DNA of 64,000 nucleotides from a virus. This document shows positions 11,970 through 27,255 of this stretch, in pieces. The position numbers and the translations under genes were made by a program. Each line of letters starts with the position of its first letter. Position 1 is the first letter of the stretch. The DNA lies in the IMG/VR virus record IMGVR_UViG_3300035181_001055, positions 1 to 64,000 of that record; one strand, written 5' to 3'. The notes beneath the pieces were generated by a model that was given only the letters and a program-made list of their open reading frames with translations, ran no database searches and was not told the DNA's origin.

Positions 11970-12042
11970 ATGAGCCTGTGTCACAAAAACTGCGATGAAA
12001 ATTTTGTGATGTAAAATGCCAAAAAAGCAATGAGGTGAGGGA

Positions 12043-12708: not shown

Positions 12709-12713
12709 CTATC

Positions 12714-13043
12714 ATGACGTCGAACCTGATTGGCATTGACTATTACAGCTTGCCGAATTTCGATACCGTGGTCAAGCGCGATGATGGCTATGTTCTCATC
12801 GAGTCTAATTGCTTCAGCTTTGGTTCTTTGTTCAAGGTCAAGTTGATGAATGGCGTCTTCTATACTGATTCATTCGAAGATGCGATTGACATGGCGTATG
12901 AGAGTGGTCAGGTAGTCAAGAGCAAGCGTGGAGAGGCGCTTCAGTTGCATGAAATTGAGGAGCTGGTGAAGACGCATGCTATATGGGAGATTGTCATTAT
13001 TGTTGCTGTTATGCTAGCATTGTTCATTCCTGCTTTGATTTGA
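12714..13043 (+). CDS. Hypothetical protein with C-terminal TM helix
   Basis: ATCATG start context; IVIIVAVMLALFIPALI tail. Confidence 0.65.
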   Translation: MTSNLIGIDYYSLPNFDTVVKRDDGYVLIESNCFSFGSLFKVKLMNGVFYTDSFEDAIDMAYESGQVVKSKRGEALQLHEIEELVKTHAIWEIVIIVAVMLALFIPALI

Positions 13044-13357
13044 TGGGTGCACGTATGAAGTGCGACGATTGCATTTACGCTGGCATTGCGATCGTCTTTA
13101 TCGCACTGCTCTTCTTCGCTTCGCCTCTCATTGCTTCAATCGTCATATGCGTGTTCGGCTTGTCTTTAGTTATCGTCACATGCGTGTATGGTGCGCGCTT
13201 GATAATCTACAGCATCTTGTCTCGCATTGCTTTAGGCGAGACTGAACATTTCGTTATCGGTCTCATCATCACTATCATTGCTTCAATCGCCATCGCGGCA
13301 TTCCTCGCTAGTTGTCATCAAGTGCCCATGTTGCTTGTAAGGTTGCTTGACATCTGA
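13043..13357 (+). CDS. Hydrophobic membrane protein
   Basis: Three long hydrophobic stretches. Confidence 0.6.
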   Translation: MGARMKCDDCIYAGIAIVFIALLFFASPLIASIVICVFGLSLVIVTCVYGARLIIYSILSRIALGETEHFVIGLIITIIASIAIAAFLASCHQVPMLLVRLLDI

Positions 13358-13398
13358 TGCTATATTATGCTTCTTCTACACAACCTCGAAAGGACAAT

Positions 13399-13704
13399 AT
13401 GAAAGTTTACACACAAGATGAGTTCAATGCTCTGCGCGTGATCGATGGCGCTCGTCAGTGCCCTACTGGCGATTACACACAAGTGAAGAACTTCGATTGC
13501 TGCACTTTCGCTGACTATTGCATCTTTGGCGATCATCATACATTCGCCGCAGGGACGAAGTTTGGCGCAGAATGCTATTTCGGTTCTCACAATCGCTTTG
13601 GCACTCGCTGTATCTTTGGCCGAAAGAGTCGCGTTGGCAAGGACAATCACTTCGGCGAAGCTTGCGGCTTTGGCGTCGGGTGCATCATCGATAATGCTGC
13701 TTAA
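13399..13704 (+). CDS. CxFGxx hexapeptide-repeat protein (paralogue 1)
   Basis: MKVYTQDEFNAL...RQCPTGDY head plus about 11 six-residue repeats; AAGGA RBS. Confidence 0.8.
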   Translation: MKVYTQDEFNALRVIDGARQCPTGDYTQVKNFDCCTFADYCIFGDHHTFAAGTKFGAECYFGSHNRFGTRCIFGRKSRVGKDNHFGEACGFGVGCIIDNAA

Positions 13705-13706
13705 GT

Positions 13707-13757
13707 AACCATACGCTTTATAGGGTCACTTGACATCTTCCAAGAACCTGCTATAAT
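13707..13757 (+). promoter_or_regulatory. Palindrome-promoter cassette 1
   Basis: AACCATAC-N5-ATAGGGTC, TTGACA 13730, TATAAT 13752. Confidence 0.75.
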
Positions 13758-13797
13758 ATAGTCAACAAGCAACGAAACATTGAGAAGGATCAATATC

Positions 13798-13992
13798 ATG
13801 TTTAACATCATGTCTCATAAGGAAGTTATGAATCGGTTCGTCAACGGCTTGCTCGACTAGCAGTATGCAGACTTCATCCGCAAGAATGCCGAACGCCTTG
13901 GCAACCGTGTCATCAAGACTGATGCTGATGTGGAGCGTGCGATGAATGAAATGTTCCTTGAATTCGAATTCCTCGAAAGCTTGTTCAACTGA
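13798..13992 (+). pseudogene. 64-codon ORF interrupted by in-frame TAG at codon 21
   Basis: ATCATG start after cassette 1; TAG at 13858; frame continues to TGA at 13990. Confidence 0.65.
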
Positions 13993-14003
13993 TGGTTGCC
14001 ATA

Positions 14004-14054
14004 GACCCTACTGCTTGCAGGGTTGCTTGACAGCCTGACAACCCCTGCTATAAT
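14004..14054 (+). promoter_or_regulatory. Palindrome-promoter cassette 2
   Basis: GACCCTAC-TGCTT-GCAGGGTT, TTGACA 14027, TATAAT 14049. Confidence 0.9.
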
Positions 14055-14086
14055 ATACCCAACAAGCAACGGAAAGGAACTACATC

Positions 14087-14605
14087 ATGAAGGTTTTTCG
14101 AGACATCGCTTGCAAGACGGTCGTCGTCATCGACGACTCTGTCTTCTACGGCATCACACGCTACAGCATCGACGAAATTCACAAACTGCAAGAGAAAGGC
14201 TTGCCTCCTAGCGTCATCGAGAAGATCCTTAGATCTTGCACTGGCAAGTCAACTGAGGAAGAAATCCGCGTATTTGCAACTGACGAGGACTTCACTGTTC
14301 GCTATGCCATTGCGAAGAGCGGTCATGCATTGGACATTCTTCTCCACGATGAGTACAGCATGATCCGCGAAGAGGTCGCCAAACATGGCTACGGGCTCGA
14401 CACTCTCGTCAAGGATCCTGTGCCTGGCGTCCGCATTGCTGTCGCCAAACAAGGCTATGGTCTCGATAAGCTGATTAACGATCCTCGCCCTGAAGTCCGC
14501 ATTGCTGTCGCCGAGCAAGGCTACGGTATCGAGACTCTTGCTCTCGATACTGACAAGCACGTCCGTCGAGTTGCAAGGCAGAAGCAAGCAGCCGTGACTG
14601 CCTGA
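14087..14605 (+). CDS. 22-aa HEAT-like repeat protein (paralogue 1)
   Basis: VAK(Q/H)GYGLDxLxxDPxxxVRIA repeats. Confidence 0.8.
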   Translation: MKVFRDIACKTVVVIDDSVFYGITRYSIDEIHKLQEKGLPPSVIEKILRSCTGKSTEEEIRVFATDEDFTVRYAIAKSGHALDILLHDEYSMIREEVAKHGYGLDTLVKDPVPGVRIAVAKQGYGLDKLINDPRPEVRIAVAEQGYGIETLALDTDKHVRRVARQKQAAVTA

Positions 14606-14613
14606 ACGAGAAT

Positions 14614-14665
14614 ATCCCTACGCCTTGTAGGGTTGCTTGACATCTGCAGCGGATTGAGTTATAAT
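14614..14665 (+). promoter_or_regulatory. Palindrome-promoter cassette 3
   Basis: CCCTAC-GCCTT-GTAGGG, TTGACA 14637, TATAAT 14660. Confidence 0.9.
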
Positions 14666-14698
14666 AAACTCATCAGAATCGGAAAAGGAATCTTCATC

Positions 14699-14956
14699 AT
14701 GCGTTACGTGATCTCTCACTACAATCCTCGCTCTGGTCGCACCTACGAGACAGAGCCGATGAGCATCGAAGAGGCTGTCAACTACTTCAGCTACACTCTG
14801 CTGGTTGGTGCTTCTTACGAGCATGAGAAAGGCAACAAGAAGATCAACCAGAATCCGAAGAACATCAAAAGCCTTATCGACAATCTGAATAAGGCAAGCA
14901 AGAACGCGTCCAAAGGTGGCTCGTACAAGGTCTATCGCGCTTACGAAGTGATCTGA
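14699..14956 (+). CDS. Hypothetical early protein
   Basis: ATCATG start after cassette 3. Confidence 0.75.
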   Translation: MRYVISHYNPRSGRTYETEPMSIEEAVNYFSYTLLVGASYEHEKGNKKINQNPKNIKSLIDNLNKASKNASKGGSYKVYRAYEVI

Positions 14957-14985
14957 GCCTGGAAAAGAAGAAAAAGGTGTTTCTC

Positions 14986-15141
14986 GAAAATCGCCGAAAA
15001 CGGTGATTTTCTCACCAATAAAATCAACGGGGTAGCATGGGGAAAACGAGGAAATTTTCCTGTCGTAATAGGTAGGTAGTTGCCCCATGTCTAGAACTCT
15101 CCATCTTTTTGTAACCCGTTGATTTTGATGGCGTTTTTCGG
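14986..15141. other. Non-coding segment with nested inverted repeats
   Basis: GAAAATCGCCG/CGGTGATTTTC hairpin; AAAATCAACGGG 15020-31 vs CCCGTTGATTTT 15115-26; CATGGGG/CCCCATG; CCGAAAA/TTTTCGG. Confidence 0.6.
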
Positions 15142-15181
15142 TTTCCTAGGCAGCCGAGATTTTCCTGGGGCTCGAGCCAAA

Positions 15182-15232
15182 GACCCTACTGGTTGCAGGG
15201 TTGCTTGACATCTTCGCTGGCTGCCTTATAAT
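15182..15232 (+). promoter_or_regulatory. Palindrome-promoter cassette 4
   Basis: GACCCTAC-TGGTT-GCAGGGTT, TTGACA 15205, TATAAT 15227. Confidence 0.9.
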
Positions 15233-15270
15233 ATACCCAAAAAGCAACGGAAAAAGGAAAGGTGGCAAAA

Positions 15271-15615
15271 ATGTTCGACTTCGAGATCATCGCTGAACGC
15301 AAGATCATCGCCAAGGCCAAGAATGGCAAGAAGAAGACTGAGAAGCAAGTCGTCGAGCTGTTCAGCGTCTTGCCTGCTATTGATGACTACGAGGTCGAGA
15401 AGGAGATTGTCAGTGCTGATGATCCTCTCGAAGCGTATGTCGCAGCGCTTGAGATGCAAGCCGATACTGTCGAGTTCGACGAGCCGATCTACAATCGTCA
15501 GTACAAGATCATCGGCACTCGTAAGACCTTCCCTCTGAAGGAGCGTCTTGAAGAGATCATCGAGAAGGTCGGTGCTTACATCGACGATGGCGGGGCTGTT
15601 CGTCTCGTGTACTAA
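15271..15615 (+). CDS. Hypothetical early protein
   Basis: ORF after cassette 4 with GGAAAGG RBS. Confidence 0.75.
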   Translation: MFDFEIIAERKIIAKAKNGKKKTEKQVVELFSVLPAIDDYEVEKEIVSADDPLEAYVAALEMQADTVEFDEPIYNRQYKIIGTRKTFPLKERLEEIIEKVGAYIDDGGAVRLVY

Positions 15616-15630
15616 GTTGAAGGAATTATC

Positions 15631-16014
15631 ATGCGTTATTTTTCTGAAGTGTCGCCGAAAGGCAATAGCTCTTGGAGTGATGTCAGCCAAGCCGAAGCCG
15701 ATGCTCGTCGCAAGGCTCTCGACGATGCTGGATGCGTCGATTGCCTCAACTGTATCAACTGCACCGATTGCGTCAATTGTATCAACTGCACCGACTGCGC
15801 GTCGTGTTCCAACTGCAGCAATTGCGCTAATTGCCTCGACTGTGTCGGGTGCGACGGTTGCTTCGAATGCGACGCTTGCAAGTACTGCGCCAACTGTTTC
15901 AACTGCGTCGGGTGCGACGGTTGCTTCGAATGCGACGCTTGCAAGTACTGCGAAGCCTGCGACGACTGCGACAATCGCGAGAACCTCGTCAATTACATTG
16001 GCTGCGCCGAATAA
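15631..16014 (+). CDS. Cysteine-rich (Cxx)n repeat protein
   Basis: Cys at nearly every third residue over about 75 aa; AAGGA RBS, ATCATG start. Confidence 0.8.
   Translation: MRYFSEVSPKGNSSWSDVSQAEADARRKALDDAGCVDCLNCINCTDCVNCINCTDCASCSNCSNCANCLDCVGCDGCFECDACKYCANCFNCVGCDGCFECDACKYCEACDDCDNRENLVNYIGCAE
15844..15952 (+). repeat. 46-bp exact direct repeat, period 63 nt (21 aa)
   Basis: GTCGGGTGCGACGGTTGCTTCGAATGCGACGCTTGCAAGTACTGCG at 15844 and 15907. Confidence 0.95.
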
Positions 16015-16049
16015 ATATCAAGCTGTGAACTGATTAGCTGTCACACGTT

Positions 16050-16125
16050 GCCACTTTAGCTCAGTTGGTAGAGCAACCGCCTTGTAAGCGGTAGGTCGTC
16101 CGTTCGAGTCGGACAAGTGGCACCA
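16050..16125 (+). tRNA. tRNA-Thr(UGU)
   Basis: GCCACTT/AAGTGGC acceptor, ACCGC-ctTGTaa-GCGGT anticodon arm, CCA. Confidence 0.95.
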
Positions 16126-16130
16126 TATAC

Positions 16131-16206
16131 GCCACCTTAGCTCAATTGGTAGAGCAGTTGCCTTATAAGCGACAGGTTGTAGGTTCGAATCCTGCAGGTG
16201 GAACCA
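16131..16206 (+). tRNA. tRNA with UAU anticodon (Ile-AUA)
   Basis: GTTGC-ctTATaa-GCGAC anticodon arm, GTTCGAATC, CCA; G1-A72 mismatch. Confidence 0.85.
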
Positions 16207-16231
16207 CCGTGAATATGATTCAAGTGAAGAT

Positions 16232-16804
16232 ATGAACCCGAAAACGTTCCGCATCATGATTTATCAGCCCTATGGCCCCGAGACGTGGAGTCTGGTGTCC
16301 AAGAACATGTATTCCTTCAACATCCATGCGTCTGATCTTGATGAGGCGACGAACTGGGTTGCACGTATATTCCCTGGCATCGATGTTCATCAAAAGTCTG
16401 ATAGGAACTACAAGGTAGGATGCGCAGATCCCGTTCACATCATCGATTGCGATGCGATCAAGAAGTATGGGTTTGTGGATGGGAAGCGCGTTCCCATCAA
16501 AACTCCTGAAGGCTACTATCGTCGCACGCCTAAGGAAATCGCGAGGGGTCTGTTCAGGATAATCAGCACGATCAACAAGGACTATACCGAATGCTTGCGC
16601 ATCGCCGATTACTCTTCGCGGATGTATGAGAAGTTCAAGCTCGACCATTACCGTGACCGTGCCGCTGTCGCCAAGAAAGCAGCCCAGCTCGCCTCGCCTT
16701 GGATTGCTAACTTGATGACGGAGTACATAACAATTCAACGAAACATCGCGTCGAGCATCGAAGTCATTGAAAGTGCACACGAACATGAACGCGATCGTAT
16801 TTGA
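16232..16804 (+). CDS. Hypothetical protein
   Basis: 190-aa ORF. Confidence 0.7.
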   Translation: MNPKTFRIMIYQPYGPETWSLVSKNMYSFNIHASDLDEATNWVARIFPGIDVHQKSDRNYKVGCADPVHIIDCDAIKKYGFVDGKRVPIKTPEGYYRRTPKEIARGLFRIISTINKDYTECLRIADYSSRMYEKFKLDHYRDRAAVAKKAAQLASPWIANLMTEYITIQRNIASSIEVIESAHEHERDRI

Positions 16805-16970
16805 TGCTGAGTTGAGTCTGCCGAAAGTCGAGCCGAAAGTCTTGTCTCGTCTAATGAGAGAGGCGAAATTTGACGATGTCGCTGCTGTGCCTATTTCACA
16901 TTCGCTCTTCGAAGTGTTTCGTCGGCTGCACCCTGAATCATACAACGCTGGCCTAGCCACAAACATATGA
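16785..16970 (+). CDS. Hypothetical protein
   Basis: ATG at 16785 overlaps the end of the previous gene. Confidence 0.5.
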   Translation: MNAIVFDAELSLPKVEPKVLSRLMREAKFDDVAAVPISHSLFEVFRRLHPESYNAGLATNI

Positions 16971-17060
16971 TTATGTTCGACACATCTGTTCAAGAGCTAG
17001 AGCATAGCGTCGGTGTCGAAGGTCTGGTGAATCAGCTCAGAGAATGACACGTCATCGAAA

Positions 17061-17111
17061 GACCCTATGATGCGTAGGGGTGCTTGACAGCTCATCAAAT
17101 CCTGCTATAAT
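17061..17111 (+). promoter_or_regulatory. Palindrome-promoter cassette 5
   Basis: GACCCTAT-GATGC-GTAGGGGT, TTGACA 17084, TATAAT 17106. Confidence 0.85.
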
Positions 17112-17133
17112 AACCCCATCAGTAACATGAACA

Positions 17134-17319
17134 TTGGAAGTCAATATCATAGAACTCGATTACAAGACTGTAGAAGACGCCGCTCGCTACCAATTCCTGC
17201 GCGATGGCAATATCAGTCGACTCGAATTCGTGGCTGACGAATATGGAGTCCTCGACTTCTATTCAGGAGATGCGCTCGACCAGGAAGTTGACAATCTCAT
17301 TCTCTCGGCTGCTCGATGA
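17134..17319 (+). CDS. Small phage protein with DAARYQFLRD motif; the expected start codon reads ATA (17149)
   Basis: ATCATAG where sister cassettes have ATCATG; ATA is in frame. Confidence 0.5.
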   Translation: MEVNIIELDYKTVEDAARYQFLRDGNISRLEFVADEYGVLDFYSGDALDQEVDNLILSAAR

Positions 17320-17508
17320 GGCCGAATGCACCAATTGCATTGATTGCATCGATTGTATCAATTGTGATAACTGTGCCAATTGCATTCAATGCTCATACTG
17401 TGCCGATTGTACAAATTGCGTTAACTGTACTAGCACATTCTCATGCGCTAACTGTACTGTACAAACTGCACCAATAGCACGCTATGTGTTAGTAGCTTAA
17501 CTGTCTAA
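17300..17508 (+). pseudogene. Remnant of a second (Cxx)n repeat gene
   Basis: RLLDEAEC resembles KALDDAGC of 15631; Cys periodicity switches frame at about 17456. Confidence 0.6.
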
Positions 17509-17528
17509 CCTTGAATCAGCCCAACATC

Positions 17529-18137
17529 ATGAAAGCATACACTCAAGATGAATTTGACGCATTGCCAATTGTGGATGAAATTCGTCAATGCCCTTCCGGT
17601 GACTATTCAGCAATCCGCGAGTTCAAAGGACAATGTTCTTTCGCGGCTAGGAGCTGCTTTGGCGCAGGAAGTAAATTCGATAACAGGTGCGAATTCGGAA
17701 ATTTTTGTGATTTCGAAAAGGGATGCATATTCGGATATCGTTGCATCTTTGGTGTATGGTGTGACTTCAAAGAACAATGTGTCTTTGATGAGCATTGTTA
17801 CTTCGGAACGAATTGTATGTTTGGCAAAGAATGCAGCTTTGGACCGCGATGTGATTTTGGTTGGTGCATTTTTCATGAAGGGTGCATTTTCAGCGGTCAT
17901 CGTGCAAAGCAAGGGTATCCAATTTTGACTTTGAAAGGCGCAGGATATGCTAACGGAACCATGAATGCTTTTAACACCGAAGGTGGTCCCTGGATAGAAG
18001 CTGAACTTTTCATGGGCGATCTTAAAGCATTTCGTGATTTTGCTAACAGAGAACACAATGAAATAAACTGCACTCAGTACTTGGCATTCGCCGATATAGT
18101 GGCGGCTGCATGGTGCTCTGAAAAGGATGAGGTCTAA
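17529..18137 (+). CDS. CxFGxx hexapeptide-repeat protein (paralogue 2)
   Basis: MKAYTQDEFDAL...RQCPSGDY head, about 15 repeats, C-terminal domain (AFNTEGGP). Confidence 0.85.
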   Translation: MKAYTQDEFDALPIVDEIRQCPSGDYSAIREFKGQCSFAARSCFGAGSKFDNRCEFGNFCDFEKGCIFGYRCIFGVWCDFKEQCVFDEHCYFGTNCMFGKECSFGPRCDFGWCIFHEGCIFSGHRAKQGYPILTLKGAGYANGTMNAFNTEGGPWIEAELFMGDLKAFRDFANREHNEINCTQYLAFADIVAAAWCSEKDEV

Positions 18138-18141
18138 TACC

Positions 18142-18516
18142 ATGAGTAATCTTGCGAAAAATCTTTCTGTATCCGAAACTGGACGGTGCTTTACTGATGT
18201 GCCGCCTCTGTCAACTATGACAGTTGAGGATTCTATTTCGAATGTGTCAAGTAGCACTGCTTACGAGTATCGAATAGAGGCGCGTTTCGGAACTTCGACC
18301 ATGGTGAATAAGACGTTCGCCGAACAGTCGAGCACACACGCAAACGTCTTTACGGATGCCATACGATCGGCGCGTCGAAAGATTGTCGAAGATGTTTTTG
18401 GCGAGTTTCGTCCTCTGATCTATCAGATCAACGAAGCGATTCACACACGCGATTGGGTTGAGGCCAGCAATCTCACTAGGAAGCTGTACCAGCAGATGTT
18501 CGAGGAAGGTCTGTGA
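18142..18516 (+). CDS. Hypothetical protein
   Basis: ORF with GAGG RBS. Confidence 0.7.
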   Translation: MSNLAKNLSVSETGRCFTDVPPLSTMTVEDSISNVSSSTAYEYRIEARFGTSTMVNKTFAEQSSTHANVFTDAIRSARRKIVEDVFGEFRPLIYQINEAIHTRDWVEASNLTRKLYQQMFEEGL

Positions 18517-18536
18517 AGGAAGTGCAGTGCTGCAGA

Positions 18537-18589
18537 GACCCTATGTTGTGTGTGGGGGTGCTTGACATCTTGCCAGAACCTGCTATAAT
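18537..18589 (+). promoter_or_regulatory. Palindrome-promoter cassette 6 (degenerate arms)
   Basis: GACCCTAT...GGGGGT, TTGACA 18562, TATAAT 18584, AAGCAACGGAA leader. Confidence 0.8.
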
Positions 18590-18627
18590 ATACCCAATAA
18601 GCAACGGAACATTGGAAAGGTAGTATC

Positions 18628-19437
18628 ATGCACGTTTTCACTCAAGCAGAGTTCAACTCACTCCCCATCGTCAACGGATATCGTCAGTGTCCGTCTGGCG
18701 ATTATTCTGAAATCGTCACATTCGATAGAAGAAACGTATTCGCTGATGGATGCGTTTTCGCCGAACAATCTGTGTTCGGCGAATATTGCGAGTTTGGGAA
18801 GAACTGCATCTTCTCTGTTTGCTGCGAGTTCGGCTCTGGCTGCATTTTCCGCGCAAATTCCAAGTTCGGCAATTGGTGCGTATTCGCCGACGGATGTGTC
18901 TTTGACCACGACTGCGTGTTTGGCGGCGAGTGCTCGTTTAGTGAATTTTCAAAGTTCGGCGAAGCGTGCGTATTCGGATCGAAGTGCGTATCCGGCAGAG
19001 AGTGCATCTTCGGCGAGCAATGCCGATTCAGCACATCGAATCAATTTGGTGACTTGTGCGAATTTGCGGACGAATGCGTTTTTGGTCAATGGTGTCGATT
19101 CAGCGCATTGTGCAGCTTCGGGCATCAGTGCCAATTTGACAATCATTGCAAGTTCGGGATTGATTCTACTTTCGGTCAGAAATGCGTCTTCAATGGTCGC
19201 GTTGCACGTTCTAGTAACCCTGTAATGGTCTTGTCTTGCATAGGCAGCAACGGCTTAACAATCTATGCATTTGATGTTGAGGGCGGTCCGATCTTCGAGT
19301 TCAACGATTTCACTGGAAACTCAAACGAGTTCCTCGAGGAAGTCACCAAGTGCAGCGATCCTCTAAATCTAGCACAGTGCTTCGGTTTTGTTAGTCTTGT
19401 TGCATCCGTTTGGTTCTCTGAAACAACTCAAAATTGA
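18628..19437 (+). CDS. CxFGxx hexapeptide-repeat protein (paralogue 3)
   Basis: MHVFTQAEFNSL...RQCPSGDY head, about 26 repeats, C-terminal domain (AFDVEGGP). Confidence 0.85.
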   Translation: MHVFTQAEFNSLPIVNGYRQCPSGDYSEIVTFDRRNVFADGCVFAEQSVFGEYCEFGKNCIFSVCCEFGSGCIFRANSKFGNWCVFADGCVFDHDCVFGGECSFSEFSKFGEACVFGSKCVSGRECIFGEQCRFSTSNQFGDLCEFADECVFGQWCRFSALCSFGHQCQFDNHCKFGIDSTFGQKCVFNGRVARSSNPVMVLSCIGSNGLTIYAFDVEGGPIFEFNDFTGNSNEFLEEVTKCSDPLNLAQCFGFVSLVASVWFSETTQN

Positions 19438-19472
19438 AGCTTCTCAATCTCGTTTCAATAAATGAAAAAATC

Positions 19473-19697
19473 ATGAACAATGCAGTCAAATTCAAATGGG
19501 ATGGAACTGTCGAGGACGAATCGGGTCTTGCCACTTACGAAATCGGGACTTCGTCTTACTCGATTCGTTTCCCTGCCTTCCGTTCTGCTAGTCTCGCATA
19601 TATGGCTCTTTCCGATGTGTACCAACAAGGGTACGAGGAAGGCATTCGCAAAGCGAAATCTGAGGTGCAAGCAGCCCTCTCAAAAATTTCAGCTTGA
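19473..19697 (+). CDS. Hypothetical protein
   Basis: ATCATG start context. Confidence 0.6.
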   Translation: MNNAVKFKWDGTVEDESGLATYEIGTSSYSIRFPAFRSASLAYMALSDVYQQGYEEGIRKAKSEVQAALSKISA

Positions 19698-19711
19698 ACT
19701 TAGGCTAGGAT

Positions 19712-19924
19712 ATGATGAATAACGATGAAGAGCTGAAGAATTCGCTGATCAGAAAAAAGCTATATGCTATCATCAATATCTTACTTTTATTGGATGAGTA
19801 TCAGCTCCAATACACCGTCATCGACTTTCTTCTAAAGCGCGCAGCAGACTTGATCGAGCAACTCCCTTCATACGAACAACAATTCTACATCAACACGCTA
19901 CGCAAGCAAACTGGCAACATCTGA
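19712..19924 (+). CDS. Small helical protein family member A
   Basis: AADLIEQLP...QQFYINTLRKQ motif shared with 20031 and 20505. Confidence 0.75.
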   Translation: MMNNDEELKNSLIRKKLYAIINILLLLDEYQLQYTVIDFLLKRAADLIEQLPSYEQQFYINTLRKQTGNI

Positions 19925-19948
19925 CGCGAGGTCGTCGGCGCGTCGAAA

Positions 19949-20000
19949 GACCCTACTAGCAGTAGGGTCGGTTGACATCAGCGTCATCTGGCTCTATAAT
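19949..20000 (+). promoter_or_regulatory. Palindrome-promoter cassette 7
   Basis: GACCCTAC-TAGCA-GTAGGGTC, TTGACA 19972, TATAAT 19995. Confidence 0.92.
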
Positions 20001-20030
20001 AAACCCATCAGCAACGAAAACAGGAGTTAC

Positions 20031-20237
20031 ATGATGAGCAACGTGGAAAAGATGTCGTACTCGCAAGTCCGTGAGGAGCTCACCAAACTGATTGACGGAT
20101 CGGTTGACAAGAACCAGTCCTATATCCCAGCAACCCTCTTCCTCCGAGGGCTCGCCGCTGAGCTGATTGCTCACCTTCCAGCAGACCAGCAACAAGTCTA
20201 CATCAACGCAATCCGCAGTCAAGTCGACTACATCTGA
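20031..20237 (+). CDS. Small helical protein family member B
   Basis: LAAELIAHLP..QQQVYINAIRSQ; CAGGAG RBS. Confidence 0.8.
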   Translation: MMSNVEKMSYSQVREELTKLIDGSVDKNQSYIPATLFLRGLAAELIAHLPADQQQVYINAIRSQVDYI

Positions 20238-20247
20238 CGCACTGAAA

Positions 20248-20298
20248 GACCCTACTGCTAGTAGGGTCGGTTGACAGCTTGACTGACCCTGCTATAAT
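20248..20298 (+). promoter_or_regulatory. Palindrome-promoter cassette 8
   Basis: GACCCTAC-TGCTA-GTAGGGTC, TTGACA 20271, TATAAT 20293. Confidence 0.92.
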
Positions 20299-20329
20299 AT
20301 AGTCAACAGCAACGGAAGAAAGTAACATC

Positions 20330-20491
20330 ATGCAAGGCATGGTTCGGATAATTGTCGGGCTGCTGATCGTCATGGGCGCCGTCGGCACCATCGATGCCGA
20401 CCCTTCTGCGCCTTTGGCTGCGACCGTCTTGGTTTCCGTCATAGGGTTTGCAATCGCAGCCTGGGGCGTTTCTGCAATGAAATCTAAATGA
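20330..20491 (+). CDS. 53-aa two-helix membrane protein (absent from the ORF track)
   Basis: MQGMVRIIVGLLIVMGAVGTIDADPSAPLAATVLVSVIGFAIAAWGVSAMKSK after cassette 8. Confidence 0.75.
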   Translation: MQGMVRIIVGLLIVMGAVGTIDADPSAPLAATVLVSVIGFAIAAWGVSAMKSK

Positions 20492-20504
20492 CTGGAGTTA
20501 TATT

Positions 20505-20696
20505 ATGAGCAACGCGTATGAGAAAGCTCGCAACGAGCTGGTTAAGCTGGTCAACACTTCGTTTGAGAACAATAAGTCTTTTTCTCGAGTCGCAGGCTAC
20601 CTCGAAATGCTTGCTGCGGATCTGATTGCAGACCTTCCTGCTGAAAAGCGTCAGCGCTATATCGATAAGATTCGCAGCCAAATCGGCAAGGTCTAA
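20505..20696 (+). CDS. Small helical protein family member C
   Basis: LAADLIADLP..KRQRYIDKIRSQ; GGAG RBS. Confidence 0.8.
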   Translation: MSNAYEKARNELVKLVNTSFENNKSFSRVAGYLEMLAADLIADLPAEKRQRYIDKIRSQIGKV

Positions 20697-20708
20697 TACA
20701 GGTCAAGT

Positions 20709-20760
20709 AACCTTAGAAGTTGCATGGTCACTTGACCCCCTCAGAAATCTGCTATAGAAT
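20709..20760 (+). promoter_or_regulatory. Degenerate cassette 9
   Basis: AACCTTAG-N5-GCATGGTC, TTGACC 20732, TAGAAT 20755. Confidence 0.55.
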
Positions 20761-20793
20761 ACCCGCTAGCATTGAAACCATTGAGGCATCATT

Positions 20794-20898
20794 ATGCCTT
20801 AAACTATCAAGCTCGCAGCCAACGAACGCATCATTACCATCGTCTTTGAAGAGCGATTTTGCTCTTCTTTTTCAACCACAACGGAGAACACATCATGA
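20794..20898 (+). pseudogene. ORF with TAA at codon 3
   Basis: GAGG RBS, ATG CCT TAA, then in-frame TIKLAANERIITIVFEE to TGA at 20896. Confidence 0.4.
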
Positions 20899-21194
20899 AA
20901 CTTTTCGCAATCCGAAACACTAGCCGAGGTCAGTACGTTTCCGCAATCTATCGGGAAAATGTTAACCACACTCCTCTTTTCCAATATGCTCGCTTGTACT
21001 TTCGCCGAGCCGACGCTTCTCGTCTAGCAAACATTCTGAATGCTAAAGAGGGCAAAGACATTTTCAATATCGTCGAAATCGAAATCACTGAGAAATCTCC
21101 TGGCAAGCGTAAACCAAGCGAAACAGCAAACGAGCTTTCAAGCGCTCGAGCAAGCGCCAATAATCATAAGTCTCAACTCCCACCTCAATCATGA
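20895..21194 (+). CDS. Hypothetical protein
   Basis: GGAG RBS, CATCATG start. Confidence 0.6.
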   Translation: MKLFAIRNTSRGQYVSAIYRENVNHTPLFQYARLYFRRADASRLANILNAKEGKDIFNIVEIEITEKSPGKRKPSETANELSSARASANNHKSQLPPQS

Positions 21195-21368
21195 TGAATG
21201 ACAAAAATTCGAAGCCCTCCTTCCTAATGTAACTTGTAAGAACAACGAAGAGTGCAGCATCGAATGGGTCGAGATTTTCGATACGTATGATGCTGCTCGT
21301 GACCTCGCCGAGAAGCTTAACAACATCATCTATGACGAAAGCGTAGTAATCTGAAAGAGAGACGACCA

Positions 21369-21650
21369 ATGACCAAGCACGAATTCTTATCGATTGTTGA
21401 CAAGCTCGATCGTTATGATTACACAAAGGCAAGTGTAATCTCGATCAAATCTGTCGATGGCGAGATTGTTCTCGCGTCAGAAGATCAAGGCGAGCAATTT
21501 AAGGTCTGCCTGATCAAAGTCGATGGCAGCGGATTCGAACACATCTACACCACGGCTTCTTATGAAGAGGCTCGCCAATTAGTGGATGATCTTAACGACT
21601 GGCTCAGCGAAGAAGATTGGGATCTGACTAAAGAGACTTTTGAGCTCTAA
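21369..21650 (+). CDS. Hypothetical protein (paralogue of 22065)
   Basis: Shared F.V.L.K......E...T...Y.EA.QL.D.L.DWL C-terminal motif. Confidence 0.7.
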   Translation: MTKHEFLSIVDKLDRYDYTKASVISIKSVDGEIVLASEDQGEQFKVCLIKVDGSGFEHIYTTASYEEARQLVDDLNDWLSEEDWDLTKETFEL

Positions 21651-21661
21651 CGGAAAGTTGT

Positions 21662-22030
21662 ATGCCAATCGTCACTCATTTTGCTGAAAGCGAAATACTA
21701 GCATGCACCAAATCAGAGAATCCTGTTATCTCTGAATTGCTCGACGAGGTAAATTCTAAATCGACTGTAAGATGGCTGATTAAAGATTACCTTGTTGCTA
21801 GAAAAAAGAGCAATGGAATTTTCTTCAGACGAAAAAACAAAGAAGTAGCAATGTACCATGAATTGTATGTTGCTACTATCGAGCCCGAATTCCAAGTCAT
21901 CAATTTCTACCAAGAGGGCTCGGAAAGCACTATCAATACAATTGTTCCGTCTGATGTTGTTGTGTCGTACTTGATGGGATTCCTGGCTTCTTTCAATAAA
22001 CGACTGACGAAACAATCGGATTGTTTCTGA
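21662..22030 (+). CDS. Hypothetical protein
   Basis: ORF in co-oriented array. Confidence 0.65.
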   Translation: MPIVTHFAESEILACTKSENPVISELLDEVNSKSTVRWLIKDYLVARKKSNGIFFRRKNKEVAMYHELYVATIEPEFQVINFYQEGSESTINTIVPSDVVVSYLMGFLASFNKRLTKQSDCF

Positions 22031-22064
22031 AAGGCGCAACTCTTTCTCATGAAAGGAGTTAATT

Positions 22065-22358
22065 GTGGAAAACAACAAATTCTTGGCAAAGATTAACGAA
22101 TTCAATCCAAGCGATTACTTCAGAGCTGGGATTGTTCCGCTCTATTACGATTCCGAGAGCGGACTATTTGAGATATCCAAAACGCCAGACGACGGCGATA
22201 TTTTCTTGGTATATCTGGTCAAAAAACATGACGAAGGCGTTGAGTGCGTCGACACCGTGAAAACTTACAAAGAAGCGAAGCAGCTTTTTGACAATCTCAG
22301 GGATTGGCTAATTGAAAATGAGTTTGAAATCTTAATTGATGACGATGAGTGGCGCTGA
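22065..22358 (+). CDS. Hypothetical protein (paralogue of 21369)
   Basis: AAGGAG RBS, GTG start, shared motif. Confidence 0.7.
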   Translation: MENNKFLAKINEFNPSDYFRAGIVPLYYDSESGLFEISKTPDDGDIFLVYLVKKHDEGVECVDTVKTYKEAKQLFDNLRDWLIENEFEILIDDDEWR

Positions 22359-22365
22359 CGAGAAT

Positions 22366-22674
22366 ATGATGAAAATTGATGGCAAAATTGATGACATTGA
22401 CGCGTTTGCTGAAAGTCTTGGAAAAGACCCGTGCATACGTCTGTATATCTTCAAGCACAGAAAAGCCGATTCGGCTCTGTGGTACAAAACCACTGTTGGA
22501 GCATCTTCAGACAGCTATAAAGAGTGCATAATGGTCCTTCCTTATCTAAACGAAGAATGGACTGAAGACAAAATTGCATTTGACACACTCGACAAAGCAA
22601 TTGAGTTTTGCAATTACTTGTCTATAACACTCGAAAGAGACGAGTTTGATAATGCGCGAGAAATGACAGCATAG
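22366..22674 (+). CDS. Hypothetical protein
   Basis: ORF in co-oriented array. Confidence 0.6.
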   Translation: MMKIDGKIDDIDAFAESLGKDPCIRLYIFKHRKADSALWYKTTVGASSDSYKECIMVLPYLNEEWTEDKIAFDTLDKAIEFCNYLSITLERDEFDNAREMTA

Positions 22675-22710
22675 ATATCCGATGAGAATGATTGCGCGAA
22701 AGGAGAGACG

Positions 22711-23019
22711 ATGAATAAGTTAGACACTGTTGTTCAGCAGTTCTTTGTTCTGGCAGAAGAAGCAGCTCGTAATGGCGGGTTTCGTGTTTCTGCCGACGGG
22801 ACGACTGTCAATCAGATTGCTGGCGAGATCAGCAACCAAACTCGTCTCCCTTTCGGCGAAGTCTCGAAGAAACTCGATGAAGTTGGCAAGAAGGTAACCA
22901 AGTCCAAGGATTGGCACAAGTGGCTGCGAGAAATTCAGCCTAAGGATGTTCGCAAGAATGCTCGATTCAGAGCTCGTGATATTGCTCGCGCTGCTTGCAT
23001 CGTTTCAATGAAGGGATAA
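22711..23019 (+). CDS. Hypothetical protein
   Basis: AAGGAG RBS. Confidence 0.75.
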   Translation: MNKLDTVVQQFFVLAEEAARNGGFRVSADGTTVNQIAGEISNQTRLPFGEVSKKLDEVGKKVTKSKDWHKWLREIQPKDVRKNARFRARDIARAACIVSMKG

Positions 23020-23047
23020 TGACAAGCTAGACTTGCTCGCCGTTAGA

Positions 23048-23098
23048 AACCCTGCTCGATGCAGGGTTATTGACATCGGCAGCATAGCCTGCTATAAT
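23048..23098 (+). promoter_or_regulatory. Palindrome-promoter cassette 10
   Basis: AACCCTGC-TCGAT-GCAGGGTT, TTGACA 23070, TATAAT 23093. Confidence 0.9.
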
Positions 23099-23131
23099 AT
23101 TCCTGACAGCAACGGAAACAAGGAGCACATC

Positions 23132-23242
23132 ATGGTTGGTTCCTTGGTTATCGACGAACGCGTTTTCAAGAGCGAAGCTCGATCCATCAGTTTCGCGTCC
23201 GAGATGCAATATCGCGGATTCAAATTTTGCATCGTTGATTGA
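23132..23242 (+). CDS. 36-aa early protein
   Basis: AAGGAG RBS and CATCATG start after cassette 10. Confidence 0.6.
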   Translation: MVGSLVIDERVFKSEARSISFASEMQYRGFKFCIVD

Positions 23243-23286
23243 GTTGAACTTGTAAGCACTAAATGGACTGCTGAGGTAATTATTAT

Positions 23287-23457
23287 ATGCTAGCTCCTGT
23301 CTTTATCGCTCGCAAAGGTTATGTGGTGCTTTGGTCATGGGGCAACTATCGCTATACCATCGACGTTGGGAATCAAGAAACCATGTTGATGGAAAATGTT
23401 GACTTCGAAGATGCATTGAAAATGCTAGAAGAAGTGGCATCTAAGCAAATCCACTGA
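23287..23457 (+). CDS. 56-aa hypothetical protein (absent from the ORF track)
   Basis: GAGG RBS; MLAPVFIARKGYVVLWSWGNYRYTIDVGNQETMLMENVDFEDALKMLEEVASKQIH. Confidence 0.65.
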   Translation: MLAPVFIARKGYVVLWSWGNYRYTIDVGNQETMLMENVDFEDALKMLEEVASKQIH

Positions 23458-23479
23458 GACGAACTCGAAAGGGAATGAG

Positions 23480-23971
23480 ATGAAGCGACGCACGAATGCT
23501 ACTTCTGGATGGGTTAACTTCCCTGTAAATGATCCTGCGTGGACCAGCACTAATGAAGGCGGCATGGTCGTGAAGCTCGTTGTTTTCGGCGACGAAGAGT
23601 TTTACGACAAGTTCGTCATGTGCTGCGGCGCACAGGTTTACGACATTAGCAATGAAGTTCTTGTCGGCGACGATAAACCTTCGAATGCTAAGAATTCTTG
23701 CTCTTATGACGAAGACGATGCATGGATTTCAAATCACTTTCCTCATATATTCGACGGGTTTATTGAAAGCTCGAGCATCGAGAAATACACTTCTCGTGAT
23801 TACTTAGCTGCGATCGTCTTCGGCACTACTGGATGGTCTGGCGCTAAAGATGGCGAGTACTGGAAGTGCACATTCAACGATTTGACTGAGCAAGGCAAAG
23901 TGCTTTACAAGCAGATTGAAGCGCTCTATCCAGGCGCCGAAATCCATCTCTTAACGTACTTGGATACTTAA
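23480..23971 (+). CDS. Hypothetical protein
   Basis: 163-aa ORF. Confidence 0.7.
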   Translation: MKRRTNATSGWVNFPVNDPAWTSTNEGGMVVKLVVFGDEEFYDKFVMCCGAQVYDISNEVLVGDDKPSNAKNSCSYDEDDAWISNHFPHIFDGFIESSSIEKYTSRDYLAAIVFGTTGWSGAKDGEYWKCTFNDLTEQGKVLYKQIEALYPGAEIHLLTYLDT

Positions 23972-23998
23972 GATTCGTTCATTTTGAAAGGAGAGATT

Positions 23999-24349
23999 AT
24001 GAAGACATTTCAAAGCGGAAATGAAACAATCACAATCCCTGACATTTCGGTAATCAAAATCGATAACCCGATCGTATTTCGAATCGAAGAGGGCGAATGG
24101 TCTGGAGTGATGTTCACAATCTCCGACATGCATTTCGATGATGAAAAAGAAAGTTTGCTTCATTACTTTTTCAATATTGTCGATGGCGATCAGCCATCTA
24201 CCGTGACACCCGATGATATCGAGAAAATCGTTGGCAATTTCATTCTGTCAATTATCAACGACCAGGTTATGAAAAAATGCTCCTCCGCCTATGATTGGAA
24301 AATCATTTGCAAAGATGACGAAAACCAAGAAAAGCGCGAAAAGGAATGA
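23999..24349 (+). CDS. Hypothetical protein
   Basis: AAGGAG RBS. Confidence 0.7.
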   Translation: MKTFQSGNETITIPDISVIKIDNPIVFRIEEGEWSGVMFTISDMHFDDEKESLLHYFFNIVDGDQPSTVTPDDIEKIVGNFILSIINDQVMKKCSSAYDWKIICKDDENQEKREKE

Positions 24350-24427
24350 AGATGAAATGATCAAGACGCAAACACAGATGGATCTGATCGTTTGTGCAAT
24401 CGAACTCATTCGTTGAGGAGAGTTAGA

Positions 24428-25123
24428 GTGAAAGTCTTCTTCACCAGCAAAGGCAAAAAAGTCATCATCGTCTATTGCGACATTGTTATTGATAACAAAT
24501 TCTACTTTTACGAGGATATTCACGACCTCGTGAAAAACAAAAAGCTGACAGCTGAAGAATACGACGAGATCATGTCCGCATTTTCAGGTATGCCTGAAAC
24601 TGATGAGACCATCAACGAGTATGCTCGCAGCGAAGACCTTGATGTTCGCCGCATTTTGGCACAACTTGGGTATGCGCCCGAAATTCTGGTCAATGACCCT
24701 GATCATGCGGTTCGAACTGAAGTCGCTAATAATGGAGACTACCTTGAAAAGCTGATTAACGATCCACACCCCGTTGTGCGTTCAAAGGTTGCCGAACTGG
24801 GTTATAGGCTTGATATCTTGGTTAACGATCCAAGCCATATCGTTCGAGAAGTTGTTGCTGAGCAAGAATATGGGCTCGAAAAGCTGGTACACGACCCGTC
24901 ACCTTATGTTCGCGCTGCTGTTGCTGAGCAAGAATATGGGCTCGAAAAGCTGGTACACGACCCGTCACCTTATGTTCGCGCTGCTGTTGCTGAGCAAGAA
25001 TATGGCCTTGACATCCTTAAAAATGATGAACATCCTTATGTTCAAAAGGCAGTAGAGAAAGCGATCTTGAAACAAAAACAAAATAATGTTTCTGAAAATG
25101 AAGAAAGGGATAAAAATGTTTGA
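24428..25123 (+). CDS. 22-aa HEAT-like repeat protein (paralogue 2)
   Basis: GAGGAG RBS + GTG; VAEQEYGLEKLVHDPSPYVRAA repeats; N-terminus resembles 14087. Confidence 0.8.
   Translation: MKVFFTSKGKKVIIVYCDIVIDNKFYFYEDIHDLVKNKKLTAEEYDEIMSAFSGMPETDETINEYARSEDLDVRRILAQLGYAPEILVNDPDHAVRTEVANNGDYLEKLINDPHPVVRSKVAELGYRLDILVNDPSHIVREVVAEQEYGLEKLVHDPSPYVRAAVAEQEYGLEKLVHDPSPYVRAAVAEQEYGLDILKNDEHPYVQKAVEKAILKQKQNNVSENEERDKNV
24853..25005 (+). repeat. Exact 66-bp tandem repeat, about 2.3 copies
   Basis: Identical units starting at 24853, 24919 and 24985. Confidence 0.95.
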
Positions 25124-25730
25124 AAAGATTAGATATGAGGGGCACCACCATATTTCACCAGATGATGCTACTTTACCCTTGCCGAAGGCACGCGATTTGT
25201 TTTTCACCAAGCAAGTCGATCAATCTAGCATTGCTGAGCTCTCACAATCAATCGTCACGATCAACAAGAATGACGAATACCTGCGTAAGTTGTACCCAGT
25301 ATATGACTTAAGCTATAATCCTGCACCGATCAAAATCTATATTGACAGCTACGGCGGTTCCGTATATCAATGCTTCGGTCTCCTTTCCATCATGGATAAC
25401 TCAAAGACGCCGATTCATACCATCGTCACTGGCACAGCTATGTCGTGTGGATTCATGATGGCGATCCATGGACATAAACGGTTCGCCATGCGAAACTCGA
25501 CGTTGATGTTCCATCAAGTCGGTAGCGTGGTTTGGGGAAAGCTGAAAGACATGGAAGAAGAAATTGCTGAGGCACAACGCCTGCAGAAACGACTCATGGA
25601 AATGACCGTGAAGCGCACAAAGATCAGTCTGGCGAAGCTGGAAGAGAATTACAAGACGAAAACGGACTGGTACATGGATGCTGACGAAGCTCTAGCTAAC
25701 GGCGTCATCGACAAGATTCTAGGCGTTTGA
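25116..25730 (+). CDS. clpP: ClpP-like serine protease
   Basis: IKIYIDSYGGSV, AMSCG (Ser), LMFHQ (His), KTDWYMDADEAL..GVIDKI (Asp). Confidence 0.9.
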   Translation: MFEKIRYEGHHHISPDDATLPLPKARDLFFTKQVDQSSIAELSQSIVTINKNDEYLRKLYPVYDLSYNPAPIKIYIDSYGGSVYQCFGLLSIMDNSKTPIHTIVTGTAMSCGFMMAIHGHKRFAMRNSTLMFHQVGSVVWGKLKDMEEEIAEAQRLQKRLMEMTVKRTKISLAKLEENYKTKTDWYMDADEALANGVIDKILGV

Positions 25731-25793
25731 CATGAGCTTGTCGCTCTGATTGACGCGTCGCACGCGCGCACGAAGCTCGCAACATCAAAAAAT

Positions 25794-25844
25794 AACCTTA
25801 CTAGCGGTAAGGTCGGTTGACAGCGGCTGAAAATAGTCTATAAT
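25794..25844 (+). promoter_or_regulatory. Palindrome-promoter cassette 11
   Basis: AACCTTAC-TAGCG-GTAAGGTC, TTGACA 25817, TATAAT 25839. Confidence 0.9.
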
Positions 25845-25882
25845 AAACTCATCAGTAACGGAAACAGTGGAAAGCAAATATC

Positions 25883-26128
25883 ATGAGCTACAAAGTTGTC
25901 CTTACTCATATCAACAACATCGAAATCGGCGACACGGTCGAGATCGACGGCGTGCTGAAAACAGTCGGAAAAGAGGACATCAAGCCCGATTCTTTCCTCG
26001 GTCGCACCCTCTTCGGCGACTGCTTTTCTCTCGGATGTGAACCAGTTCGAAAAGTCATTTTTCCTAACCAACCAAAAAAAGTCACAAAGCCTTCTTCTTT
26101 CAAGCGCATTGTTCATCGTCTGAAGTAA
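25883..26128 (+). CDS. Hypothetical early protein
   Basis: ATCATG start after cassette 11. Confidence 0.7.
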   Translation: MSYKVVLTHINNIEIGDTVEIDGVLKTVGKEDIKPDSFLGRTLFGDCFSLGCEPVRKVIFPNQPKKVTKPSSFKRIVHRLK

Positions 26129-26133
26129 TCATC

Positions 26134-26604
26134 ATGAAAAAAGCAATCTTGACTATCGGCATAAGCGCCAGCGGTAAGTCCACTTGGGCTGCAGAATACT
26201 GCGCCAAAAACGAAGGCACTCAAGAAATCAATCGCGACTATATTCGCAAGTGCCTTTACACCATGGAAACTGGCAAACCGTTCACATGGAGCGAATGGAA
26301 ATGGGAACCTAAAGTCACATTGACTCAGCGCGAAATGATCGAGCGCGCAGCTAAAAGTCAGCGAGTAAAAACTATCATCATTTCCGATACTAACCTCAAT
26401 CTCAACCGCATCAAAGAAATGCGCGAGTGGCTCGAAAGTATCGGATTTGAAGTTGAGTACAAGATTTTTCGCGTCGATTACGAAGAGGCAGTTAAACGAG
26501 ACGCCAAGCGCAACGATAGCGTCGGGTCTCTTGTGATCGAGAGACAGCTCGAACACTTCAACGAACTCATGAAATCGTTCAAAGAACTCGAGGCGGTATC
26601 GTGA
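26134..26604 (+). CDS. Polynucleotide kinase-like P-loop kinase (PseT kinase domain only)
   Basis: ILTIGISASGKSTWA, INRDYIR, IIISDTNLN, EAVKRDAKR. Confidence 0.85.
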   Translation: MKKAILTIGISASGKSTWAAEYCAKNEGTQEINRDYIRKCLYTMETGKPFTWSEWKWEPKVTLTQREMIERAAKSQRVKTIIISDTNLNLNRIKEMREWLESIGFEVEYKIFRVDYEEAVKRDAKRNDSVGSLVIERQLEHFNELMKSFKELEAVS

Positions 26605-26864
26605 ATCTGATCAAATGCAAAGTTTGTGGTGAGGGCTACGTAATCGACTGCGAAGATCAGTTCGAAGCAGACTACATGGGGTTCAAAGAGAATCTGACCT
26701 TGCACTATAAAACATGCGATTTTTGCGACTCCGAATTCGTCGATGAAGAGGATATGCGCAAAAATAAGAAGAAGATGCTCGATTTCAAGCATGATGTTTT
26801 GAAAAGAATTATCATTGATGGAATCAAACCCGCCGCCACTACAAACGATCTAAATCGGAAATGA
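26601..26864 (+). CDS. MqsA/YgiT-type zinc-finger protein lacking the HTH domain
   Basis: CKVC..G...YMG....LH..TCDFC...DEE......F..V spacing matches the MqsA N-terminal domain. Confidence 0.65.
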   Translation: MNLIKCKVCGEGYVIDCEDQFEADYMGFKENLTLHYKTCDFCDSEFVDEEDMRKNKKKMLDFKHDVLKRIIIDGIKPAATTNDLNRK

Positions 26865-26865
26865 A

Positions 26866-27255
26866 ATGGGATACGATTATCACAAAGATGGCACGACGCC
26901 TCTTGATGAGAGCATTTTTGTCTTCGGCAGTAATCTTGCTGGCATACATGGTGCGGGGGCTGCTAAAGTTGCTTTACGGCTCTTTGGCGCTAAGTATGGC
27001 ATTGGGGAAGGGCTAGTCGGCAGATCGTATGCGATCCCGACGAAGGACGAAGAGATCATGACACTCCCTCTTGAAGAGATCTCGAAATCGGTCACTCGTT
27101 TTTCAGATTTCGCTAGATCGAATCCCGAGATGAAATTCTGGGTTACGAAAATCGGATGTGGGCTCGCTGGGTATAATGACGAACAGATTGCCCCTATGTT
27201 CAAAGGAGCACCTAGCAATTGCAACATGCCACTCGATTGGAAGAGGTTTTTATGA
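26866..27255 (+). CDS. A1S_2505-like phage non-structural protein (macrodomain-like)
   Basis: IFVFGSNLAGIHGAGAA, SYAIPTK, VTKIGCGLAGY, IAPMF. Confidence 0.75.
   Translation: MGYDYHKDGTTPLDESIFVFGSNLAGIHGAGAAKVALRLFGAKYGIGEGLVGRSYAIPTKDEEIMTLPLEEISKSVTRFSDFARSNPEMKFWVTKIGCGLAGYNDEQIAPMFKGAPSNCNMPLDWKRFL

Follow-up and report, generated by a model that had tools for sequence, protein, structure and literature searches.

In three pairs of T4-type phages (RB49/phi1, T4/PST, and KVP40/nt-1) a recurrent cassette has been described, the promoter early stem-loop (PeSL), in which a stem-loop lies just 5' of a strong sigma-70-like early promoter, followed by a Shine-Dalgarno (SD) sequence and a start codon (Arbiol et al. 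2010, PMC2839356; Comeau et al. 2014, PMC4122927). The published PeSLs form clusters in hyperplastic regions, with stems specific to each lineage; they include degraded half copies and are found near indels; those of RB49 showed measured promoter and terminator activity and formed mini-circles, and the authors suggested that a recombination protein might bind the stem-loop (PMC2839356, PMC4122927). Here we describe an array of such cassettes in the uncultured virus record IMGVR_UViG_3300035181_001055, whose first 64 kb (positions 1 to 64,000) are referred to below as the window. The array is a new example of the PeSLs already described and not a new kind of element, and its cassettes probably act as PeSL-type early expression units in which the hairpin works at the RNA level, as an attenuator or an insulator.

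The window was scanned for perfect sigma-70 promoters (TTGACA, a spacer of 16 or 17 nt, and TATAAT), and 17 were found against 0.02 expected from shuffles. Ten of the 17, all on the plus strand and within the interval 13.7–25.9 kb, have a common palindrome 5' of the promoter and a common leader 3' of it; the -35 elements of these intact copies start at 13730, 14027, 14637, 15205, 17084, 18562, 19972, 20271, 23070, and 25817. The exact pattern of palindrome plus -35 matched three times, with none expected. A profile built from the intact copies and run on the genome recovered four more sites (20709, 123226, 13325, and 27444), three of which (20709, 13325, and 27444) are degraded and resemble the published 'half' PeSLs. 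All 11 positions at which the first-pass annotation had placed the unit do carry it, ten in intact form and one (20709) degraded, and 11 of the 12 cassette copies fall within 13.7–25.9 kb. The copies are given here, numbered C1 to C11 along the array and with the flanking degraded and distant ones included (paralogue families and related contigs are described further below):

13325–13398, plus strand: degraded half cassette with right arm, -35, a spacer reduced to 8 nt, and a leader-like stretch; precedes a family A gene with its likely start at 13399
13707–13800, plus strand: C1, weak palindrome, -35 at 13730, -10 at 13752, ATG at 13798; heads a 64-codon open reading frame (ORF) with an in-frame TAG at 13858
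14004–14089, plus strand: C2, a single A-C mismatch in the stem; heads the HEAT-repeat gene 14087–14605
14614–14701, plus strand: C3; heads the ORFan 14699–14956
15182–15273, plus strand: C4; heads 15271–15615, 15631–16014 (family C), tRNA-Thr, tRNA-Ile, 16232–16804, and 16785–16970
17061–17152, plus strand: C5, ATA at 17150 replaces the usual ATG; the frame is open from a TTG at 17134
18537–18630, plus strand: C6, poor hairpin; heads the family A gene 18628–19437, followed by 19480–19722 and 19712–19924
19949–20036, plus strand: C7, 9-bp stem, folding free energy (dG) of -21.5 kcal/mol with the outer helix; heads the family D gene 20031–20237
20248–20332, plus strand: C8, 9-bp stem; heads 20330–20491 and the family D gene 20505–20696
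20709–20802, plus strand: C9, degraded, with TTGACC and TAGAAT; a Met-Pro-stop ORF follows
23048–23134, plus strand: C10, both arms changed yet paired; heads 23132–23242 through the ClpP-like gene 25086–25730
25794–25885, plus strand: C11, both arms changed yet paired; 92% identity to its orthologue in contig L009
27444–27536, plus strand: degraded cassette whose hairpin has a T-run; the -35, at 27472, has decayed to TTTGTA; TATAAT at 27495, ATG at 27534; the -35 is intact in L009
Genome positions 123226–123321, outside the window: extra intact cassette

Information content across the copies is high in the palindrome arms, in both hexamers and the base that follows the -10, and in the leader, and low in the loop and the spacer. 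The left arm begins at the positions listed for C1 to C11, and the right arm ends 2–3 nt before the -35 in all copies, with a linker of 2–3 nt of G/C. The palindrome, which had been taken as a property of every unit, is imperfect in C1, C2, C4, and C6. The stems are short (7–9 bp), the dyad is centered near -48, at the position of an UP element, and most stems have a short A-run (AAAG) on their 5' side. Downstream, the TG expected before TATAAT occurs in six of the ten copies and is missing from the rest. The leader is conserved, A/C-rich, and ~15 nt long, exists in two subtypes, and contains GGA or GGAG; an antisense partner for it was sought and none was found. In 10 of 11 copies the start codon lies 29–42 nt past the -10. 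As to the ATCATG start, ATC precedes the ATG in 8 of 11 copies, C5 having ATA, and ATC ahead of the start codon is commoner in the array than elsewhere (6 of 21 starts vs. 4 of 103); it is part of the cassette unit.

The T4-type late promoter motif TATAAATA is absent from 13.7–27.6 kb, as would be expected of an early region. A MotA box was considered, with TGCTT overlapping the -35 in five copies, and was rejected, the distance to the -10 being 18–19 nt and not ~12 and the motif missing from the other copies. A second class of consensus promoter exists elsewhere in the genome, with an A-run just 5' of the -35 and no palindrome (e.g., 6924 and 62403, minus strand, in the window; 84889 and 124716, genome positions past the window), so that two promoter classes, A-tract or palindrome, are found in one genome. 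A perfect consensus promoter is also located on the minus strand at 12475–12503 of the window, antisense within the gene 12043–12708.

The record is a single virus record of 126,753 bp and 41.7% G+C, linear according to IMG/VR and ~75% complete according to CheckV, with nearly all of its genes on the plus strand. It encodes a ribonucleotide reductase, an ATP-dependent ligase, and T4-type baseplate proteins (identified by baseplate PHROG matches). The gp6-like baseplate wedge protein has 41–45% identity to its counterparts in T4-like phages infecting Acidovorax, Xanthomonas, and Stenotrophomonas and ~31% to cyanophage gp6, and in 2049 records the match covers at least 80% of its length. When the array, the structural region, and a single cassette were used as nucleotide queries against GenBank phages, only tRNA matches or none were obtained, and no phage with the cassette sequence. 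From the likeness of gp6 together with the lack of a nucleotide-similar GenBank phage, we place this virus as an uncultured, deeply branching, distant T4-like myovirus, which makes the comparison with PeSLs apt. Searches for MotA and AsiA with Pfam gave no match, a result of little weight with a record ~75% complete and controls that were silent too. The G+C content of the array region (window 12000–20000) is 47–50%, compared with 36–43% in the structural region and 38–40% in the homologous region of a relative.

The PeSL likeness noted in the first-pass annotation has held up, both in the T4-like gp6 and in the match with the published layout. The carrier is of T4 type, a stem-loop stands just upstream of a sigma-70-type promoter, an SD sequence and a start codon (here predicted) lie at the 3' end, the copies are clustered among hyperplastic ORFans, the stem has a sequence that is lineage-specific, though not wholly so, degraded half copies exist, and several copies are located near indels or replacements between relatives, as are a similar number of cassette-free junctions. 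There are also clear differences. The AT-rich stretch that separates stem and -35 in published PeSLs is absent, and an A-run is found instead on the far side of the stem; the arms have a defined mixed sequence and not a G-run and a C-run; and a conserved leader of ~15 nt in two subtypes has been added. As had been observed before, the hairpins have no U-tract, and because of this the terminator activity shown for RB49 is doubtful here. A role of the cassette hairpin as a full terminator seems unlikely from its sequence.

All of the hairpins are located 2–90 nt past the stop codon of the upstream gene, with folding energies from -5.9 to -21.5 kcal/mol among the 11 copies. When the arms of 12 copies were compared, 84% of cells were paired, against 31–47% with the partner slid. 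In several copies an outer helix is formed in which the -35 pairs with bases 5' of the left arm, although only in C9 is the extension strong at the level of DNA. C10 and C11 have changes in both arms with pairing kept, and the C11 state is found also in its orthologue. The latter comes from a 9-kb IMG/VR contig (L009/L010) that is collinear with 23480–31557, has 76–86% nucleotide identity, and retains C11 with 92% identity overall (hairpin 95%, -35 to -10 96%, leader 87%), compared with 70–83% at the third codon positions of the genes on either side (binomial P ~1.5e-4 for the C11 excess). The whole C11 unit, arms included, is thus under constraint in this one orthologous pair. At the site orthologous to C7, a second relative (a 54.7-kb IMG/VR contig comprising L119, L240, and L011, with 38–40% G+C and proteins 60–90% identical) has a different perfect 8-bp hairpin, which points to a structure that is kept and a sequence that is not. 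The more distant contig L241 carries a hairpin-promoter-leader unit of its own, in which the stem is different; its positions 3260–3850 hold two near-identical cassettes with a 7-bp hairpin, TTTACA, TATAAT, and a conserved leader. A second, G+C-rich palindrome of the type GACGCG ... CGCGTC is located just 5' of the cassette hairpin at C7 (19922–19946) and C11 (25752–25780), the one at C11 being present in L009 in altered form.

In a rival reading the palindrome would be a DNA operator bound by a dimeric regulator of phage or host, which would switch a subset of early promoters on or off as a separate regulon. We regard this as rather unlikely. It would account for conserved arms around a free loop at a nearly fixed 2–3 nt from the -35, for a dyad near -48 where the other promoters hold their A-tract (and so for the two promoter classes), for a symmetry that reaches over the -35 in some copies, and for the left-arm sequence that a 4.8-kb metagenome contig (L174, see below) has retained without pairing. 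It fits poorly with C10, C11, and the C11 orthologue, where both arms have changed symmetrically and still pair, with the wholly different hairpin of the C7 orthologue, and with the four copies that combine poor symmetry and perfect promoters; a center at -48 is off-phase for classical activation, and no candidate regulator was identified. To our knowledge the palindrome fits none of the consensus sites of CRP, FNR, LexA, NarL, LuxR-type regulators, OxyR, TrpR, or MqsA. A broader version, in which the palindrome would be no terminator remnant but the operator of a dedicated regulator (or the target of a structure-specific nuclease), and would define a regulon of fast-evolving accessory genes controlled apart from the A-tract promoters and couple their expression to exchange, is in our judgment unlikely.

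The origin of the palindrome is a different question, on which some unrelated contigs are informative. The unit sequence had been described as its own, and no GenBank phage matches it, but the same arms stand beside TTGACA in unrelated jumbo-phage contigs of up to 331 kb that have only a remote gp6 match. Their arms are often symmetric and flanked by an A-run and a T-run, with the look of a bidirectional terminator. These contigs (L001–L008, IMG/VR, 19–331 kb) have dense consensus promoters with a conserved leader of their own, several of them preceded by same-arm hairpins flanked in this way. The symmetric A-run/T-run form suggests that the palindrome of the array derives from a bidirectional terminator whose T-run was overwritten by the promoter. 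A canonical terminator with a 7-bp G/C stem and a T-rich tail stands immediately before a perfect promoter at window 2679–2732, a PeSL-like arrangement outside the array and with another stem.

In another reading the cassettes are simply related strong early promoters with no special recombination role, and the palindrome is a decaying remnant of a bidirectional terminator, the plasticity of the region coming from non-essential genes and from illegitimate or homing-driven events. The AAAG that survives to the left of the stem, the -35 in the place of the right T-run, and the full symmetric form in jumbo phages all agree with it, as do the several decayed hairpins, the broken genes left by deletions away from cassettes (e.g., near 21240–21358), and the many breakpoints off cassettes. 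However, the C11 hairpin is 95% conserved where synonymous sites reach 70–83%, the parts of the cassettes are mosaic, and degraded copies are located at indel sites; we consider this reading quite unlikely.

This mosaic structure is seen when the copies are compared part by part. The similarity matrices of hairpin, spacer, and leader are uncorrelated among copies (Mantel r 0.10, p 0.28). C7 and C8 have hairpins 93% identical with leaders at 68% and no shared spacer, C1 and C6 have spacers 88% identical with hairpins at 57%, and C2 and C4 share hairpin and leader with spacers at 44%. Hairpin type tends to match between neighboring copies and leader type alternates. The pattern hints at exchange within cassettes at the invariant hexamers, although the segments are so short that convergence is also possible. 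Identical blocks in the same orientation are 11–18 bp long between copies.

Mosaic cassettes, together with a palindrome directly 5' of a consensus promoter, might also recall a dedicated DNA recombination signal, either a cruciform extruded in the negatively supercoiled zone behind the very strong promoter and cut by a junction nuclease or the site of a specific recombinase, in an integron-like capture; the stem-loop-binding protein considered possible by the PeSL authors would have a place there. We find this extremely unlikely, with stems of only 7–9 bp, with the mosaic crossovers lying between hairpin, spacer, and leader and not at the hairpin, and with no recombinase or integrase-like gene seen within or next to the array.

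The first-pass annotation had seen the unit as a recombinational one, and the synteny of relatives bears on this. The 54.7-kb relative contains more members of the same gene families, arranged differently, and its promoters are weaker versions of the same design, with a related leader and mostly no stable hairpin ahead of them. It has two extra promoter-headed genes exactly at the site of the degraded C9, lacks the C1 module between a family A gene and the orthologue of the HEAT-repeat gene 14087, and carries homologues of the window 13.3–15.6 kb block at the position of C10; at C11, past the ClpP gene, it diverges fully. Differences exist as well at junctions free of cassettes (past 20895, from 23287 to 23480, and from 24428 to 25086). 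Where orthologues are present on both sides, three of four junctions at cassettes are broken compared with three of eight others, numbers too small for a test. An association of breakpoints with cassettes is suggestive and not demonstrated, because relatives differ at junctions without a cassette as well; several breakpoints are at cassettes, as the recombinational claim would have it, and a similar number are elsewhere. The further claim that the unit gives birth to genes found no supporting evidence.

A metagenome scan with the pattern of the -10 plus leader matched at least 120 loci, and among the matches listed L174 is the only relative. This contig has five cassettes of one gene each, and the homologues of 16232 and 15271 appear in it in another order. 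Three relatives have the same promoter-headed families in differing order and number. The protein homologues P0002–P0004 are 74–85% identical. No match was obtained when IMG/VR was scanned with the protein of the 12043 gene as anchor, or when metagenomes were scanned with aligned sequences of the 16232 protein.

Our preferred explanation remains that of PeSL-type early expression units with an RNA-level hairpin. Each unit would restart host sigma-70 transcription ahead of one to several accessory genes, with predicted activity and predicted early timing, and the A/C-rich leader, with its GGA/GGAG ribosome site and usually an ATC-ATG, would set translation. The hairpin may attenuate or insulate against read-through, or cap the 3' end of the upstream message. 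The copies probably descend from one ancestor unit and would be kept alike by selection on each functional element. Since their identical blocks of 11–18 bp share orientation, they may also serve as substrates for homologous recombination by the phage, and so contribute to the gain and loss of the intervening genes and to changes in their order; such a recombinational role of the cassettes is plausible but circumstantial.

A number of observations weigh against this explanation, some concerning the hairpin and others the exchange. Just 6–7 of the 11 hairpins clearly beat shuffles in folding, and covariation in the hairpin (12 copies) is no better than in column shuffles. No T-run is found on the sense strand 3' of the cassette hairpins, and only C11 was called as a terminator, on the minus strand, while canonical terminators of hairpin plus T-run are present elsewhere in the same genome (2679, 71657, and 109129). 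Upstream of the promoters of relatives, folding was seen in just 1 of 8 and 1 of 5, and the cassettes of L174 keep the left arm mostly without a matching right arm or pairing, which looks like conservation of sequence and not of structure. The longest exact identity between copies is ~18 bp, and breakpoints occur about as often elsewhere as at cassettes (C1, C7, C9, C10, and C11).

The genes headed by the cassettes form a hyperplastic block, in which the five paralogue families that we recognize confirm an earlier impression of many related genes:

13357–25730, plus strand: hyperplastic block of ~35 small genes, mostly ORFans, with five paralogue families
13399, 17529, and 18628: paralogue family A
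14087 and 24428: HEAT-repeat paralogue family
15631 and 17204: paralogue family C
19712, 20031, and 20505: paralogue family D
21369 and 22065, plus a remnant near 21240–21358: paralogue family E

Most products of the block have no Pfam or PHROG family, the exceptions being two HEAT-repeat proteins, a ClpP-like protease, and an AAA_33 kinase-like protein. The family C genes (at 15715–15960 and 17318–17495) contain ~25 tandem 9-bp units encoding Cys-x-x repeats (CxxCxxC...), and the sole family match of family C is PHROG 15341, whose function is not known. Broken genes, also proposed earlier, are indeed present: an in-frame TAG in the ORF 13798–13992 after C1, the ATA at 17150, the Met-Pro-stop ORF after C9, and the family E remnant at ~21240–21358, which is 5'-truncated and matches the 3' part of an intact gene of a relative. 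Amber suppression was considered as an explanation for the TAG after C1 and was rejected, there being no suppressors among the 14 tRNAs of the genome.

Two adjacent tRNA genes, tRNA-Thr (UGU) and tRNA-Ile (UAU), at 16050–16206, share 78% identity, which points to duplication of a tRNA followed by a change of anticodon; the tRNA-Ile (UAU) gene has two copies in the 54.7-kb relative. An Rfam search of 12–29 kb returned only tRNAs. Between the C3 gene and C4, a non-coding gap of 225 nt (window 14957–15181) has a folding energy of -75.7 kcal/mol (z -3.66 vs. shuffles); the predicted fold contains a strong internal hairpin as well as a long-range helix. Nothing in Rfam matches this gap, nor was a counterpart seen in the relatives that were compared.

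Early genes of T4 are served by strong sigma-70 promoters with A-rich UP-like elements, and compared with these the cassette class swaps the A-run for the right arm of the palindrome and adds a shared leader. A more distant parallel is the host-takeover module of the Bacillus phage SPO1, in which, as Stewart et al. reportedly described in 1998, small early genes are grouped into numerous short operons whose promoters and ribosome sites are very strong. The likeness lies in the density of host-type consensus promoters, each serving one or a few small early genes. That module belongs to an unrelated phage family and is located in the terminal redundancy, and we know of no repeated palindrome abutting the -35 in it. 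With intrinsic (Rho-independent) terminators the cassettes share a G+C-containing stem-loop right past a stop codon, and differ in having no T-tract on the sense strand.

Overall, the general picture of how T4-type phages keep and shuffle their accessory genes is left unchanged by this array. PeSL-type cassettes are now extended to a T4-like lineage that is small, uncultured, and deeply branching; the cultured phages closest to it infect Acidovorax, Xanthomonas, and Stenotrophomonas. The mosaic copies give sequence-level support for exchange within cassettes. The compact variant found here, with a stem that touches the -35 and no T-tract, calls into question termination as the reason why the stem-loops are kept, and the presence of A-tract and palindrome promoters in one genome makes it a clean system for testing the purpose of the stem-loop.

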